DNA of 63,545 nt, the filler included, from Nitrospinae bacterium RIFCSPLOWO2_12_FULL_45_22 (lineage in GTDB: Bacteria > 2-12-FULL-45-22), in assembly GCA_001803565.1 (NCBI GenBank). It is 8 parts of 8 records of this genome, joined end to end, with 100 filler letters (N's around TTAATTAATTAA, not from the genome) between each part and the next. Parts side by side here need not be neighbours in the genome. Positions count along the whole stretch, not along the records: positions 8,916 to 18,327 come from MHDQ01000140.1; 7 more parts are not named here. One strand, 5' to 3'. The translations under genes and the position numbers were made by a program. The notes beneath the pieces were generated by a model. It did no database searches and had not been told where the DNA came from. It saw only the letters and a program-made list of their open reading frames with translations. Shown one piece after another: positions 8,727 to 51,463 of the stretch. Positions within the stretch are counted from its first letter, which is position 1, and each line of letters opens with the position of its first letter.

Positions 8727-8769
8727 TAATCTCTCCCCTTTACTCTTTGTCCTTAATTTCCGCTGAAAA

Positions 8770-8807
8770 CCCTTATCTCAGGATTAACGCCCCCGCTGAG
8801 ATAAGGG
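8770..8807 (-). terminator. Hairpin, probable terminator of an upstream gene
   Basis: CCCTTATCTCAG/CTGAGATAAGGG 12-bp stem followed by TTTT on the minus strand. Confidence 0.5.
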
Positions 8808-8815
8808 ATTATAAA

Positions 8816-8915
8816 NNNNNNNNNNNNNNNNNNNNNNNNNNNNNNNNNNNNNNNNNNNNTTAATTAATTAANNNNNNNNNNNNNNNNNNNNNNNNNNNNN
8901 NNNNNNNNNNNNNNN
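8816..8915. other. Artificial contig linker (same at 18328-18427, 24504-24603, 30682-30781, 36836-36935, 44086-44185, 51364-51463)
   Basis: N44-TTAATTAATTAA-N44, stops in all six frames. Confidence 0.98.
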
Positions 8916-15618: not shown

Positions 15619-15861
15619 ATGTTGGCTATCCCTTCCGCATTACAGGCACAATTTGAAGAATATTTACGAAATAAGGAAATTCCAAGCAGCTTGCAAGGGA
15701 CGTATAAAAAGTGGCTGCGCTATTACCTGGACTTTTGTCAGAAGTATCACTTCCCTCCTATACCTAAAGAGAGTCTGCCCCACTTTATCCACAAATTGCA
15801 GGAAAAGAAGCAAACGAAGGAGCGACAAGAGCAGGCCGTAATGGCGATAACGGTGTATTAG
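15619..15861 (+). pseudogene. intI: Integron integrase, N-terminal fragment only
   Basis: YKKWLRYYLDFCQKY..FIHKLQEKKQT..QEQAVMAI resembles (from recall) the N-terminal extension of long Deltaproteobacteria-type IntI; divergent from attI/cassettes; cut by intron DNA. Confidence 0.7.
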
Positions 15862-16037
15862 ATGGAGGACTTCGCTGTCACATGCCAACTCGTCCCGGAT
15901 GTACCACACCTCATATCCGGTTTCTGTTCCCCGGATCAAGTCCGGGGCAGGCTCTTGCCCTTCTCCTAGCCTTCGGCTCCGCTTACACCTGGCGCAAGGA
16001 CTCTCACCTCGCTAGCTCTGTGCCATGCCCGGCACAC
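15860..16037 (-). mobile_element. Group IIC intron, 5' fragment (domain I), inserted in an attC
   Basis: Starts GTGTGCCGGGCATGGCACAGAGCTAGCGAGGTGAGAGTCCT directly after GT of the attC R' box; contains a REP-like GCCTGCCCCGGACTTGATCCGGGG. Confidence 0.8.
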
Positions 16038-16090
16038 ACGCCGAAATCAGCGGCGGCGTTTACGCCGTCCGCTGGATTGATTTGTTCGCT
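16038..16090 (-). other. attC site split at R' by the intron
   Basis: R'' AGCGAAC, L'' AATCCAGC, L' GCTGATT, R' GT|intron. Confidence 0.85.
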
Positions 16091-16371
16091 GATGGTTTTC
16101 GTTGCTTTTCCATCCAACTGGGAAGTGCTGCTCCAGTGGCTTCGGAGTAAAGCGTCTCAGGAGCAATGTCTATCTCATCCTGCCAAGTGATGACGCCAAG
16201 CTCTTCATTTATCTTAAAGTTCTTGAAAAAGGTAATGTCTTTGAAACGATCAAAAACGCCACCCTTTTCAAGATAGCTTGAGAAATCTACGATTCCCCCT
16301 TTCCCATCATCAAACCTGACTTCAATCTTGTATTCAGCCTTGTAACGGGCGAAAACCAGATCGTGTATCAT
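16060..16371 (-). CDS. DUF2442-family protein (TA-like partner of DUF4160)
   Basis: YKIEVRFDDGKGGIVDF..GVITWQDEIDIAPETLY; ATG 16371 with AGGAGGT RBS. Confidence 0.85.
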   Translation of the reverse strand: MIHDLVFARYKAEYKIEVRFDDGKGGIVDFSSYLEKGGVFDRFKDITFFKNFKINEELGVITWQDEIDIAPETLYSEATGAALPSWMEKQRKPSANKSIQRTA

Positions 16372-16384
16372 TATCGACCTCCTT

Positions 16385-16645
16385 TTATACCAACGGTGGG
16401 ATCTTCTTTGGTGGCACATTTTGCTTTGCCAGTTCCCAATCGCTGAGCAGTTCTTCCCGGTGCTGAGAGGCCCATTCCATAACAAGCCCCAACGCCCGAT
16501 GAGGAATATGTCCCTCAAGGATTCGTAACGAGTCTATCCCAATCGCCACATTGTCCTTGCCGTACCGCGCATGAAAATGGGGCGGATTGTAATCATCAAA
16601 AAACATGGCGATTATGATTCCAAAAAATCGGCTGATCTCAGGCAT
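16385..16645 (-). CDS. DUF4160-family protein (putative toxin)
   Basis: MPEISRFFGIIIAMFFDDYNPPHFHARY..LVMEWASQHREELLSDW. Confidence 0.9.
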   Translation of the reverse strand: MPEISRFFGIIIAMFFDDYNPPHFHARYGKDNVAIGIDSLRILEGHIPHRALGLVMEWASQHREELLSDWELAKQNVPPKKIPPLV

Positions 16646-16685
16646 CCTGAACCTATTCTACCTTACATAGAATATTATTTCAAAC

Positions 16686-16775
16686 AGCGAACGACCGAAA
16701 TCAGGCGCGCGGGCCAAAGACATTGCCCGTTAGGCCCCGCAGACCCTTCCCGTCGCCTGAATTGATTGGTTATGC
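16686..16775 (-). other. attC site
   Basis: R'' GCATAAC, L'' AATTCAGG, L' CCTGATT, R' GTTCGCT (complement of the next R'' AGCGAAC). Confidence 0.85.
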
Positions 16776-16841
16776 CGCCATGTGCGACCGTTTTGAACAG
16801 ACTCTTCTATTAACCGGCATACAAGGTCCTTGCTTGATTTA

Positions 16842-17043
16842 CCTGACTTTACCCCAAATTATGTACACTACAGGTCGTGAATATGAAATGCATAATGTGA
16901 TCAAGGCAATTTATCAAAAGGAATCTAACATAGATTTCTTGGTAGTGTATGAAATGTACACCACCTCCCCTGTTGTCCGAACAGAAAAGCTGGAGTTTAC
17001 CCAATGATAATGGGTAGTGTATAAAACTTATGGAAAAGTCAGG
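16842..17043. mobile_element. MITE-like element (202 bp)
   Basis: About 30-bp imperfect TIRs CCTGACTTT...TACACTAC, flanked by GATTTA direct repeats; internal palindrome at 16941-16965. Confidence 0.65.
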
Positions 17044-17074
17044 CGATTTAAGGTCACCGGACAGCGTTGGGCAT

Positions 17075-17182
17075 CTATTTATTCTTCTTTTCTTTTTTCA
17101 ATTTGCGCTTTTCCTTTGGAGTAAGCTGAGCCTTTTTTTGCTGTTCTTTTTTGCCTTTATCTTTACTTCCCTTATCACCCAT
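17075..17182 (-). CDS. Small Lys-rich protein (35 aa) within a cassette
   Basis: MGDKGSKDKGKKEQQKKAQLTPKEKRKLKKEKKNK, AGGAG RBS; not in the ORF track. Confidence 0.6.
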   Translation of the reverse strand: MGDKGSKDKGKKEQQKKAQLTPKEKRKLKKEKKNK

Positions 17183-17453
17183 TTCTGTTTCTCCTTGCTG
17201 TAAAATGGTTTGCGCCGGACTGTGGCGCCGAAAACCCTTCTTCTGTCGTAGAAGTTAGCAGATGGGATCGCTTGGCGTCACCGCCAAATGCATCCAATAT
17301 GCCAGGAACTTCATCGGAAAACCCTCAGCGGCTTCATCATCTGGATTCGAAACCGACGGGCACAGCTTGTTGGCGGTATCCAGCCTGATGGCGTCACGCT
17401 CGTCGATTTCTCACCCGTCCCCTATCACTACCCGGCCTGGGGCGTGCGGCATA

Positions 17454-17490
17454 ATCGGGATAGGGAGGAGCCTCACGACTCCCCTCCTCC
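17454..17490 (-). mobile_element. Group IIC intron 3' end (domain VI) relic
   Basis: GGAGGAGGGGAGTCGTGAGGCTCCTCCCTATCCCGAT|TATGC; TATGC completes the R' box matching R'' GCATAAC. Confidence 0.75.
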
Positions 17491-17582
17491 CTTTTTATCT
17501 AAAAACAGGAGGAGCATTTTACCCTTAAAGGGGGGTCAGTTCTATATGAGGATAAGGGGTCAATTGTATTTTACGATATACA
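17491..17582 (-). mobile_element. IS21-family-like terminal fragment
   Basis: Begins TGT, two repeated (A)ATTGACCCC/AACTGACCCC boxes; interrupts the attC that starts at 17610. Confidence 0.55.
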
Positions 17583-17610
17583 TCCGGTCAACTCCAATGA
17601 CTTGTTAGGC
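17583..17610 (-). other. attC left half (interrupted)
   Basis: R'' GCCTAAC (complement of the attI copy 2 core GTTAGGC), L'' ATTGGAGT, then the IS end. Confidence 0.7.
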
Positions 17611-17633
17611 CATGTGTTCCTTTTACTGTGATT

Positions 17634-18327: not shown

Positions 18328-18427
18328 NNNNNNNNNNNNNNNNNNNNNNNNNNNNNNNNNNNNNNNNNNNNTTAATTAATTAANNNNNNNNNNNNNNNNN
18401 NNNNNNNNNNNNNNNNNNNNNNNNNNN

Positions 18428-23928: not shown

Positions 23929-24603
23929 CATTGTTAATGGATTTCTGACAAAAAATAACCACTCCCAAATGACAAAGAACCTGAACTGTTACATTTTTCC
24001 TTAGCAGGTAGGGCATAAGAATCTGGTTTTGGGTAATAGTTTCCCCCATTATACATCTCCATACCCATACAGATGGTCTTGTTGAAATACTCGATGAAGA
24101 TTGATCTGGCACGAATCACCGGAAAAGGAACGAAGCAATTGCTTTGAACAAAACTGGGTGCAAAAGCGATAAAAATAGAAGACACCAAAAATTATCCTAC
24201 AACAATTAAATGGGAGACAGCCATGCCAAAGATTGATATTGAGAAGACAGAGCTGGTCGGGCTGGATAAATATAATGATGATAGAAAAAAGATAACCGTT
24301 CACCCGGCTAAGCTTTATCAGCCACTAAGACACAAAGGCACCAAGGAAAGGTAAAACGCAAAGCTAAAAGTGCAAAGCTCCTGTCTGCGTGCACCGCACA
24401 GGCAGGGAGGAATAATTACCTTAAACTGCCTATCTGCTTCGCTCATGTTAAGTGTTAACAGTTTATTTTTATTGGCTTTGCATGAGTTGCTAAAGATTGC
24501 TGANNNNNNNNNNNNNNNNNNNNNNNNNNNNNNNNNNNNNNNNNNNNTTAATTAATTAANNNNNNNNNNNNNNNNNNNNNNNNNNNNNNNNNNNNNNNNN
24601 NNN

Positions 24604-30681: not shown

Positions 30682-30781
30682 NNNNNNNNNNNNNNNNNNN
30701 NNNNNNNNNNNNNNNNNNNNNNNNNTTAATTAATTAANNNNNNNNNNNNNNNNNNNNNNNNNNNNNNNNNNNNNNNNNNNN

Positions 30782-36835: not shown

Positions 36836-36935
36836 NNNNNNNNNNNNNNNNNNNNNNNNNNNNNNNNNNNNNNNNNNNNTTAATTAATTAANNNNNNNNN
36901 NNNNNNNNNNNNNNNNNNNNNNNNNNNNNNNNNNN

Positions 36936-42559: not shown

Positions 42560-42635
42560 TGCTAACGGCTGAGGCATCACCTGCGGGCGCGTCCGCGCGG
42601 GCGGGCGGTCCGTCAGGTGCATGCCCGGGTTCGAC
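42560..42635 (-). other. attC site
   Basis: R'' GTCGAAC, L'' CATGCACC, L' GGTGATG, R' GTTAGCA (complement of the next R'' TGCTAAC). Confidence 0.85.
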
Positions 42636-43716
42636 GACCCTTCCGCTGAAGAGGTTTCCCTGCAGTCAACTTGAATAGCACACTCAAGCCCGGATCCCCG
42701 GCGATCGTGATCCCGTGAGCGGAACCGAGGAGTTTCGTCATGTCCTTGCCAGCCTCTTCGATCGCCTTCAGGACGAGAGCACCCGTCGGATCCGCAAAGG
42801 AGGCCATTCCCAGTGATACCCATTTCAGAGCCGTGCCGAAAATCTTGCGCCAGAGCTTGCCCTTCTCCAGTTCAATTCTTCTATGGATTTCGGCAACGTA
42901 GGGCATGACGGTGGTCTCGACCAGGAAGCGGGCCTCCTCTCGGACGCGGGAGTAATCAGGCTTGTCGCCAAGCAGTTTCCGTAGCTCGGCGGCCAACTTC
43001 AGAGTCATCATGCGAAAGGGGACAAGTTCGTCTGAAAAACGCCCGCGTATCTCAAGCAAGTCCTCGGCGGTTGACCAGTGCACCGCTGGCATATGGAGAG
43101 AAAGGAGCTCCAGACCGATTGCCGCCGCTAGATCCGGCGCGGAGCGCAGCAGGGGCCGAACATCGGGAACCGGAAGAGCACCTTCGTCGCTAACCGCAAT
43201 CCATCGGTTCTTGATTGCGAGGTACCGGGCGGAAGGCAGAACTCGGACAAGAATGTCGTCATCAAGCTCCGGATGCGCCTTGGTGAACTCTTCCACGGCC
43301 TCCAACTCGGGTGTCTTGCCCATGAGGAAGGCGGCGAATTCGTCCACAGGCAGCCCACCCGACGTGAGCTTGGAGACCATGTCATTGACCGTGGCGGTCA
43401 AGAGACCCGGGTGGTAGTAGACCGTGTCGCCAAGAAGCGGCTTGATGTCCAAAACGAAGCAGTAGAACTTGCCGGTCCTCTCGATGGTCTTCTGCGCACT
43501 AGGACCCGAATGGTCCCCCATCACCCCGATTTGGATCTTGTCTGGAAGGCCCTTGAGATACTGGGTATATCTTGCGACCGTTGACGCGTCGTCGCTCAGG
43601 GTCACGAAATGGACGCGGTCAAAATAGAGGTGCATCGACGCGAAGTGGTTTCGGTCGTGCGGGTAACAGTCTGGGTAGTAGATGGCCTCCAACGCCTCGT
43701 TGCTGCCTTGGGGCAT
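42613..43716 (-). CDS. GC-rich hypothetical cassette protein (DUF6236-like pattern)
   Basis: AIYYP..LYFDRVH N-terminus, EDLLEIRGRFSDELVPFR; ATG 43716 with GGAGGT RBS; stop inside the attC. Confidence 0.7.
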   Translation of the reverse strand: MPQGSNEALEAIYYPDCYPHDRNHFASMHLYFDRVHFVTLSDDASTVARYTQYLKGLPDKIQIGVMGDHSGPSAQKTIERTGKFYCFVLDIKPLLGDTVYYHPGLLTATVNDMVSKLTSGGLPVDEFAAFLMGKTPELEAVEEFTKAHPELDDDILVRVLPSARYLAIKNRWIAVSDEGALPVPDVRPLLRSAPDLAAAIGLELLSLHMPAVHWSTAEDLLEIRGRFSDELVPFRMMTLKLAAELRKLLGDKPDYSRVREEARFLVETTVMPYVAEIHRRIELEKGKLWRKIFGTALKWVSLGMASFADPTGALVLKAIEEAGKDMTKLLGSAHGITIAGDPGLSVLFKLTAGKPLQRKGRRTRACT

Positions 43717-43744
43717 GTGCCCACCTCCATGTTTGGTCCGTCGA

Positions 43745-44085
43745 ATCGGGATAGGGGGACGTCTCACGACGCCCCTCCTCCCACACCACCGGGCATACGG
43801 ATCACGTACCTCGGCGGTTCGGCTGATTAAGTCAACCAGACTTGTTGACCGAGGCGTCTCTTCTTAGCTCCGGTCACGAATTTCACCGGGTCTAGTGCAT
43901 TATCCATGAGCGTTACTAAGCAACTTCCTCTCTCTTTTAATCCCTTTCGGGAACCGTTCAGGCCTTCGGAGACGGCATGACACCAAACTCAGTCCGTTTA
44001 GGTCAAGAGTTTCCGTCACCTGCTCTTTCGATATACAGGGCGGGTTCCTAGTTCGTCCATGCGAGCCTTGCCTGCTGCCTGCGTC
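43745..44085 (-). mobile_element. Group IIC intron, 3' half, reverse-transcriptase ORF deleted; 5' part beyond contig end
   Basis: Domain V GAACCGCCGAGGTACGTGATCCGTATGCCCGGTGGT (CGC triad); domain VI ending CCTATCCCGAT|TCGAC. Confidence 0.85.
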
Positions 44086-44185
44086 NNNNNNNNNNNNNNN
44101 NNNNNNNNNNNNNNNNNNNNNNNNNNNNNTTAATTAATTAANNNNNNNNNNNNNNNNNNNNNNNNNNNNNNNNNNNNNNNNNNNN

Positions 44186-51336: not shown

Positions 51337-51463
51337 GATCTGTCCCTCCTTTCTCCAATAGCANNNNNNNNNNNNNNNNNNNNNNNNNNNNNNNNNNNNN
51401 NNNNNNNTTAATTAATTAANNNNNNNNNNNNNNNNNNNNNNNNNNNNNNNNNNNNNNNNNNNN

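Follow-up and report, generated by a model that had tools for sequence, protein, structure and literature searches.

On which strand of the integron recombination site attC, and at exactly which base, do the group II introns of an uncultured soil or groundwater bacterium insert? The question was raised by a 63.5-kb stretch of DNA from Nitrospinae bacterium RIFCSPLOWO2_12_FULL_45_22 (the whole of it is called the window below, and positions without a contig name refer to it), where intron ends abut the attC sites of gene cassettes at three places. The window is composed of eight contigs (C139-C146) of a metagenome-assembled genome of 321 contigs with 85% completeness; N44-TTAATTAATTAA-N44 linkers separate them at positions 8816-8915, 18328-18427, 24504-24603, 30682-30781, 36836-36935, 44086-44185, and 51364-51463, and neighbourhood across these linkers is biologically meaningless. 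We conclude that a bacterial lineage of class C (IIC) introns very probably homes into the top strand of attC, and that the features in the window are copies of such an intron, two of them decayed.

The three junctions, which an earlier note on this DNA had placed at the GT/T of the attC R' box on the minus strand (a slash marks the boundary between exon and intron), were all found where that note had them. The 5' junction reads GATTTCGGCGT/GTGTGCCGGGCATGGCACAG at 16038/16037, with CCGCTGATTTCGGCGT as a longer reading of its upstream exon, and the two 3' junctions read CCCTATCCCGAT/TATGCC at 17454/17453 and CCCTATCCCGAT/TCGACG at 43745/43744, or CTCCCTATCCCGAT/TATGCCGC and CCCCCTATCCCGAT/TCGACGGA, respectively, when extended. 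The junctions at 16037 and 17454 are located in contig C140 (8916-18327), and the one at 43745 in contig C144 (36936-44085). The 20-mer at the intron 5' end occurs a single time in the window when up to 3 mismatches are allowed, with 0 occurrences expected from 100 shuffles. The 12-mer at the 3' end is weak by itself (2 matches against 0.57 expected, and at least 2 in 13 of 100 shuffles); the identity of these ends lies in the longer homology among the window pieces and the copies found elsewhere in the genome.

Three intron pieces adjoin these junctions, all on the minus strand. A 5' fragment of 177 nucleotides (nt) at 16037-15861 starts with GTGTGCCGGG, is internally deleted within domain I, and stops at 15861; it shares 73% identity over query positions 1-177 with a copy on contig C87. 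The 3' remnant at 17491-17454 (GGGAGGAGGGGAGTCGTGAGGCTCCTCCCTATCCCGAT) retains only the 38 nt of domain VI, without the upstream domain V, and is 87% identical to the last 38 nt of the third piece in one comparison (E 7e-6), 89.7% identical to that piece over 38 nt in another, and 94.7% identical over 38 nt to a copy on contig C17. The third piece, 341 nt at 44085-43745, comprises a domain IV stub, domain V and domain VI, is ended by the contig end, contains no reverse transcriptase (RT) coding sequence in its 341 nt, and shares 84-88% identity with the C17 intron. The copies at 16037 and 17454 are thus truncated relics that are unable to splice.

More complete copies are present on other contigs of the same genome. 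In contig C17, an intron with both ends present extends from 17516 to 16660 of that contig on the minus strand (...CCGCTGACCTCAACCGT/GTGTG ... CCCGAT/TAGCTG) and is ~830 nt long after discounting a gap of 8 Ns flanked by a duplicated overlap of 22 nt; in contig C87, the 5' end ...CAGGTGATCGGCAGCGT/GTGTG is followed by intron sequence up to the contig end. The copies in this genome are ~830-860 nt long and have no gene for a reverse transcriptase/maturase, and a hairpin lies upstream of every one of them. Their boundaries, GTGTG at the 5' end and ...CCCGAT at the 3' end, are the same in all copies and fit the GUGYG/AY ends of class C introns. The Infernal models proposed in the earlier note bear out the longer copies as group II introns: C87 and C17 match the RF02001 family (group-II-D1D4-3) at 125 bits (E 3.9e-26) and 122.2 bits (E 1.9e-25), respectively; the window pieces themselves all score below the cut-off, and a search of the window against Rfam at gathering thresholds returned no intron match, only tRNA. 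In seven related introns, the 3'-terminal 80 nt form domain V and a domain VI with a bulged A, with compensatory changes in 8 of the 26 pairs. Class C introns carry the catalytic triad CGC in domain V instead of AGC. In the seven-intron alignment, the lower helix of domain V reads CGC, with a G.U pair flanked by C-G pairs (ACCGCC/GGUGGU). Introns of a distant genome (G016), which are located after terminators ending in TGTT, are 71-73% identical to the copies described here in domain I and match RF02001 at 146 bits; the best solved match of their 414-aa protein is the GsI-IIC RT (E 2.1e-147), followed by the Eubacterium rectale IIC protein. The RF02001 matches, the domain V/VI fold, and the match of the G016 protein place the ribozyme in class C, and by this homology the pieces in the window are class C (IIC) group II intron sequences.

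The flanks of all three junctions are integron attC sites with the layout RYYYAAC, 5-nt spacer, bulged stem, spacer, GTT. The matches between R' and R'' listed in the earlier note, TATGC with GCATAAC and TCGAC with GTCGAAC, hold, and TCGCT with AGCGAAC can be added for the next cassette. The corresponding R'' boxes lie at 16775-16769 (GCATAAC, cassette start at 17453), 16090-16084 (AGCGAAC, start at 16690), and 42635-42629 (GTCGAAC, start at 43744). The attC of the cassette named B here (16038-16090, minus strand) has the stem CAGCGG-A-CGGCG/CGCCGCCGCTG and ends with ...TTTCGGCGT, the intron following directly after the GT of R'; the attC of the adjacent cassette A (16691-16775, minus strand) is uninterrupted and runs from its R'' to CGCGCCTGATTTCGGTCGT/T. 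Since the matching of R' with R'' is symmetric between strands, the top strand cannot be told from it alone, and other criteria were used.

These criteria are the extrahelical bases, the direction of the open reading frames (ORFs), the position of intI, and controls, and they bear out the earlier note in taking the minus strand as the top strand here. According to the part of PMC5027507 (Nivina 2016) that describes extrahelical bases, those of the top strand lie on the 5'-AAC-3' arm and those of the bottom strand on the opposite arm, where they read G...T with 6-bp spacing. Along the intron strand, the AAC arm of the attC sites at 16038, 42565, C87, and C17 bears two extra bases with 6-bp spacing, one of them C, T, or G and the other A; in the site at 16038 the extras are C and A, 6 bp apart, and in the site at 42565 they are G and A, on the AAC arm in both. 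An integron of the same genome that is anchored by intI and attI (contig C243) shows the identical polarity on its coding strand, and in C17 an intI stub lies upstream of, and divergent from, the intron-bearing array. All Pfam-matched ORFs of the cassette regions beside the junctions (DUF4160, DUF2442, MqsA-like, DUF4258, RelB, and YafQ) are encoded on the intron strand. A scan of C140 and C144 for attC sites with a score of at least 20 found four places in C140 and one in C144 on the minus strand and 0 on the plus strand; the uninterrupted site at 16691 scored below 20. Strand calls were made with a classifier that aligns one arm against the other, which replaced minimum free energy folds of the 5' exons that had been too noisy. 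It correctly called the top strand for the aadA1 attC of plasmid pVb0267 and the aacA4 attC of plasmid pPp47, and the bottom strand for the attC along Kl.pn.I3, an intron inserted in antisense right after blaIMP-4 (p24854-IMP, locus L169).

The same evidence bears on the suggestion that these are ordinary introns of the S.ma.I2 type (IIC-attC introns) in the bottom strand, with the plus strand as top strand and the cassette genes reversed. The R'/R'' matching would fit either orientation, and the passages on target choice in PMC3001079 describe integron IIC introns as specifically bottom-strand. However, the extras on the AAC arm along the intron strand are the top-strand criterion in PMC5027507, the intI-anchored arrays of the same genome share the polarity of the intron strand, and every family-matched cassette ORF is co-oriented with the introns; moreover, Kl.pn.I3, a genuine bottom-strand case, receives the opposite call, has the exon-binding site 1 (EBS1) ACAA and the target TTGT, and shares at most 62% identity, within the first 330 nt, with any of the introns compared. 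We consider the chance that the introns lie in the bottom strand to be close to negligible.

A different concern is that metagenome assembly produced the truncated pieces and their junctions as chimeras, at places where repeats of intron, attC, and intI meet. The genome is a bin of several hundred contigs (321, as given above, at 85% completeness), introns, attC ends, and intI stubs are repeated in it with contigs ending at them (C144, C87), and unitigs from all four sequencing runs that were compared break at 16049 and near 15854. These breaks stand against direct spans in Logan contigs of the runs that contain the stretch, which are soil and groundwater metagenomes. Position 15861 is bridged by a contig of run X5 (15825-17), positions 17454 and 17491 are both bridged by contigs of X1 (17075-17536) and X2 (16953-17512), and position 17454 alone by a contig of X4 (16953-17487), each with 0 differences. 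For 16038, no bridging contig piece was present among the 32 of 258 pieces listed, and this junction rests on the assembly plus its parallels in C17, C87, and the plasmids described below. Because the bridging contigs come from other public runs and show no differences, the relics are unlikely to be chimeras of this one assembly, and we regard assembly artefacts as a very improbable source of the junctions.

With the strand and the junctions settled in this way, the site itself can be read to the base, and the intron appears to recognize it through a short pairing. The loop aligned with EBS1 is CACGTGA in the copies of this genome, in both plasmid introns, and in environmental relatives whose exon ends with CGT; in the copy at 16037 it is CATGTGA, which pairs with CGT via one wobble. 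The comparison of EBS1 with the intron-binding site (IBS) that the earlier note had called for gave ACG opposite CGT, and the loop changes in step with the target in the other introns: opposite the exon end TTGT, Kl.pn.I3 has CACAAGA (EBS1 ACAA), and opposite TGTT, G016 has CAACAGA. From this correspondence of loop and target it follows that the intron reads C-G-T, composed of the spacer's final base and the GT of R', and inserts ahead of the second T. The attC crossover is conventionally placed at G/TT, which puts the intron one base inside the next cassette.

Is this orientation new? The earlier note had asked for prior reports to be checked, and novelty did not survive comparison with known cases. 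In its account of previously reported introns, PMC7923331 (Sonbol and Siam 2021) mentions an unusual IIC intron in the top strand and in cassette orientation in an Enterobacter cloacae integron, citing Rodriguez-Martinez 2012; among the texts listed in full-text literature searches on group II introns in attC, the passages of PMC7923331 are the only ones that mention a top-strand case. Moreover, introns of the same lineage are present in class 1 integrons of public plasmids. In pVb0267, the order is cmlA5-blaOXA-10-aadA1-intron-qacEdelta1, with the junctions ...GGCTTAACTCAAGCGT/GTGTGTCGGG and CCTCCCTATCCCGAT/TAGATGCACTAAGC; an identical intron occurs in NC_019380.1 and NZ_MF627445.1, and an equal-scoring protein match in NZ_CP015139.1. 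In pPp47, the order is intI1-blaIMP-4-qacG2-aac(6')-Ib4-intron-qacG2, with the junctions ...CATGTCAAACGT/GTGTGCCGGG and CTCCCTATCCCGAT/TAGATGC. Three further plasmid matches (H38, H30, and H84) were rejected as not associated with integrons. The likeness between the E. cloacae intron and those of pVb0267 and pPp47 is drawn from its one-sentence description in PMC7923331.

The plasmid introns resemble the copies described here in their insertion at GT/T of the top-strand R' (...CTCAAGCGT/GTGTG...CCCGAT/TAGATGC and ...GTCAAACGT/GTGTG...CCCGAT/TAGATGC), in their co-orientation with the cassettes, in the EBS1 loop CACGTGA, and in their position within the same group of the ribozyme tree. Their first 330 nt are 76-77% identical to those of C87, and their last 80 nt are 85-90% identical to the end of the 43745 piece; for Kl.pn.I3, the corresponding values are 62% and 69%. 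They differ in being ~1.84 kb long with an ltrA gene, whereas the copies in this genome have no protein gene and two of them are relics, and in residing in a clinical mobile integron, whereas the host here is an uncultured soil or groundwater bacterium with arrays of the chromosomal type.

The IIC-attC introns (S.ma.I2, E.c.I7, and Kl.pn.I1, with Kl.pn.I3 as the example examined) share with the introns described here a class C ribozyme, the use of the attC hairpin as upstream stem-loop, a GT/T cut at the 3' foot of that hairpin, a nearly identical domain V, and a similar 3' end. However, the passages of PMC3001079 (Leon et al. 2010) and PMC7923331 that treat their target place them at R'' (TTGT/T) of the bottom strand, running against the cassettes and between a gene and its attC, as is seen in L169, and Kl.pn.I3 differs from the copies of this genome in EBS1 (ACAA vs. 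ACG), in the 5' end (GTACG vs. GTGTG), and in overall sequence (60-62% identity over the first 330 nt). Bottom-strand insertion at R'' in antisense, the feature that defines the S.ma.I2 lineage, is found in Kl.pn.I3 and is absent from the introns of this genome, which therefore fall outside the label 'IIC-attC'; the label is best kept for the bottom-strand S.ma.I2 lineage. The introns of this genome display instead both sets of top-strand features, namely sense insertion at GT/T of R' and a shared ribozyme lineage with an ACG EBS1 loop. Terminator-homing IIC introns (GsI-IIC and the E. rectale intron; here G016 and Firmicutes loci) are alike in belonging to the RF02001 family and in using a hairpin plus a short IBS1, and the Firmicutes introns begin with the same 5' 20-mer; they differ in their target, an intrinsic terminator followed by T-rich sequence, with EBS1 AACA opposite TGTT. 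Class C intron proteins are of ~420 aa and have no endonuclease domain; the G016 protein is of ~414 aa, a size from which the absence of that domain is deduced. Finally, UHB.I2, as described in PMC7923331, is also in sense orientation relative to the cassettes and adjoins an attC, but is a class IIB1 intron with a CL1 protein that lies downstream of the attC and not within the GTT triplet.

The breadth of the lineage was assessed with the 5' 20-mer, which occurs in at least 119 places in contigs of one genome per species. The 80 loci taken gave 84 junction instances; four with too little upstream sequence were dropped, and the 80 left represent 72 distinct junctions in other genomes. Forty of these end with CGT, two end with GT but not CGT, and 30 do not end with GT, the last being mostly from Firmicutes and located after terminators. 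When the strand was tabulated for these relatives, as the earlier note had asked, 22 of the 40 CGT junctions showed extras only on the AAC arm (top strand), against one called bottom strand. A maximum-likelihood tree built from the first 330 nt of 50 introns unites the copies of this genome, the introns of pVb0267 and pPp47, and environmental introns, with most of the CGT introns among them, in a group of 29 rows (SH-aLRT 89, not starred), in which 27 of 29 have the exon end CGT; Kl.pn.I3 is placed outside this group and joins G016 by an untrustworthy long-branch join. The tree, EBS1, and the junction tally together support the lineage with top-strand GT/T targeting proposed in the earlier note as a coherent group. 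Among 25 loci, RT motifs are present within the first 1.5 kb in 7, and a recognizable 3' end in 2. In three loci (L072, L086, and L120), no RT was seen within 1.5 kb of the intron 5' end and other small ORFs occur there instead, including a nucleotidyltransferase/HEPN-like pair after the intron 5' end in L072, an arrangement suggestive of short protein-less introns with the next cassette behind them.

Several observations weigh against a dedicated top-strand lineage of class C introns. The piece at 16037 reaches 31.4 bits with RF02001 (cut-off 32) and the piece at 43745 reaches 23.4 bits with RF00029 (cut-off 40). Family searches of the 85% complete assembly found no class C intron protein, so that the class is assigned via ribozyme homology to relatives only; the only matches that the intron protein search gave in the genome are a 1003-aa ORF of C291 that includes a fused RT and, in C191, the C-terminus of the protein of a different intron. 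C17 was called mixed by the classifier, with an A on the AAC arm and one G at the tail of the alignment, and among the 40 CGT junctions of other genomes, 15 gave no attC-like alignment, one was called bottom strand (L080), one was mixed, and one was without extras. The group of 29 rows has only moderate support, and four CGT rows (L048, L061, L076, and L099) lie outside it on long branches. The runs with bridging contigs may include the source sample of this genome.

Some of these points would also be accommodated if the introns homed to any stable hairpin followed by CGT/T, with the top strand of attC being merely the commonest such hairpin. IIC introns generally use a hairpin and an IBS1 of 3-4 nt, along with an IBS3 and no IBS2, terminators precede relatives that share the 5' 20-mer (the 30 of 72 junctions not ending with GT), 15 of the 40 CGT junctions gave no attC-like alignment, and a few junctions (L055 and L073) show no obvious hairpin. 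On the other hand, in the 22 top-strand CGT junctions every element of the layout is present (RYYYAAC, spacer, bulged stem, spacer, GT) and the cut never departs from the register of the GTT triplet, all junctions in this genome and both plasmid junctions are in attC sites, and many of the 15 unaligned sites resemble long attCs by eye (Marinobacter L064, L076, and L118, for example). We thus consider such indiscriminate hairpin homing unlikely, and retain homing into the attC top strand as the reading that accounts for the window.

Under homing into the attC top strand, the following sequence of events can be proposed. The folded top-strand attC hairpin would stand in for the terminator hairpin of ordinary IIC introns, the 3-nt EBS1 loop (5'-ACG) would pair with the exon end 5'-CGU, and the intron RNA would reverse-splice between bases 2 and 3 of the conserved R' GTT, in the direction of the cassette genes. 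The copies of this genome, having no RT gene, would need that protein in trans. Insertion would take away the R' half of the R box, leaving the attC non-recombining and the two neighbouring cassettes fused. The sequence at the R' position after insertion is GTGTGTG and not GTTRRRY, with which the R box of the folded bottom strand cannot form, and we infer from this a loss of recombination. An intact copy could be spliced out of the sense transcript, and the relics at 16037 and 17454 would have arisen from later deletions, one of which joined intron nt 177 to intI codon 80. The idea put forward in the earlier note, that the introns block cassette excision at the DNA level yet splice out of the array transcript, may apply to intact members but fits this window poorly, because two of its three copies are unspliceable relics, the copies of the genome have no reverse transcriptase/maturase gene, and no class C intron protein was found in the 85% complete assembly.

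The cassettes adjoining the junctions carry the typical small paired genes of such arrays (DUF4160/DUF2442, MqsA-like/DUF4258, and RelB/YafQ). Cassette B (16038-16690, minus strand) starts with T/TCGCT and contains two ORFs on the minus strand, a DUF4160 ORF at 16385-16645 (Pfam E 2e-20) and a DUF2442 ORF at 16060-16518 (E 2.2e-16). Cassette A (16691-17453, minus strand) starts with T/TATGC directly after the intron remnant and has no convincing ORF; apart from attC-like ends, no second copy of it was found in the genome. The contigs of runs X2 and X4 omit 162 bases of this cassette (16790-16953), which points to a shorter cassette variant in other samples. Upstream of the remnant, between it and the MqsA-like cassette, the start of an attC (GGCCTAAC AAGTC ATTGGAG..., 17611-17604) and ~110 nt of further sequence occupy 17492-17611 on the minus strand, a stretch that is unique in the genome. 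Cassette C (42565-43744, minus strand) starts with T/TCGAC and ends with its attC at 42635-42565 (R'' GTCGAAC, ...CCTCAGCCGT/TAGCAGG); the RelB/YafQ cassettes follow it on the same strand.

At 15861, the 5' intron fragment is fused tail to tail with a stub on the opposite strand, an 80-aa N-terminal part resembling integron integrases (15619-15861, plus strand; Pfam Phage_int_SAM_4, E 2.9e-7). This stub is 91.8% identical to C28:1853-2158, where the sequence continues past the breakpoint; in runs X2 and X4, sequences with a free end at 15860 carry this C28-type continuation. Integrase-like stubs of this kind are repeated in the genome (15619-15861 in the window, C28:1853-2158, and C304:6656-6786). 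The genome encodes two full IntI integrases (467 and 439 bits against a TIGR02249 cut-off of 265) and ~30 partial IntI matches, several of which have the same internal deletion (residues ~125-268 gone in C136 and C317).

Further observations concern sequences related to, or adjoining, the introns on other contigs. The 3' end of a second group II intron, not of class C, occupies C191:3900-5047 on the minus strand and is ended by the contig end; it has a domain V with the AGC triad (RF00029, 43.4 bits) and the C-terminal part of a maturase. A motif of ~70 nt (ATATTGTGGCAC...GAGAAGACAAAG) is located within the protein-less IIC introns of C17 (~17120-17190 of that contig) and C87 (~8745-8815). It recurs with 83% identity in C191:4438-4509 and C122:13184-13255, and also in locus L103; the C191 copy is, according to Infernal, an insert in domain VI of the different group II intron just described. 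Directly after the C17 intron, the cassette or flank at C17:16450-16660 (minus strand) begins with a catalase-like ORF, which is either an unusually big cargo for a cassette or a sign of the end of the array.

A lineage of sense-strand introns that cut R' is thus already known from class 1 integrons that have been sequenced, with at least one earlier report; to it the window adds an environmental host with arrays of the chromosomal type, protein-less copies, and two relics in decay, of which one is welded to a truncated intI. More speculatively, the environmental introns may be no rarity but a large, poorly described lineage that mirrors the textbook IIC-attC introns, with an EBS1 (ACG) retuned to C-GT/T of the strand left unused by the integrase, protein-less copies that spread in trans, and a braking effect on cassette shuffling. 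We put this broader view forward tentatively and with some doubt. Under it, removal of the R' half-site would weld cassettes together, and splicing would hide the intron in the sense transcript. In 25 of 30 sedentary chromosomal integrons, the bottom strand is on the leading-strand template (PMC5371416); the top strand is thus usually found on the template of the lagging strand in these integrons and would be the more exposed strand.

In the textbook picture, integrons shuffle cassettes via the folded bottom strand of attC, and the only attC-specialized introns use that same strand, in antisense. The sense-strand lineage cuts within the recombination core, and it already occurs beside aadA1 and aacA4, in class 1 integrons of clinical origin. 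Should intact members splice while the attC is disabled, cassette order would be frozen without the genes being silenced. This bears on the stability of cassette arrays, and also on their annotation, as elements of 0.8 kb pass for 'intergenic' DNA.

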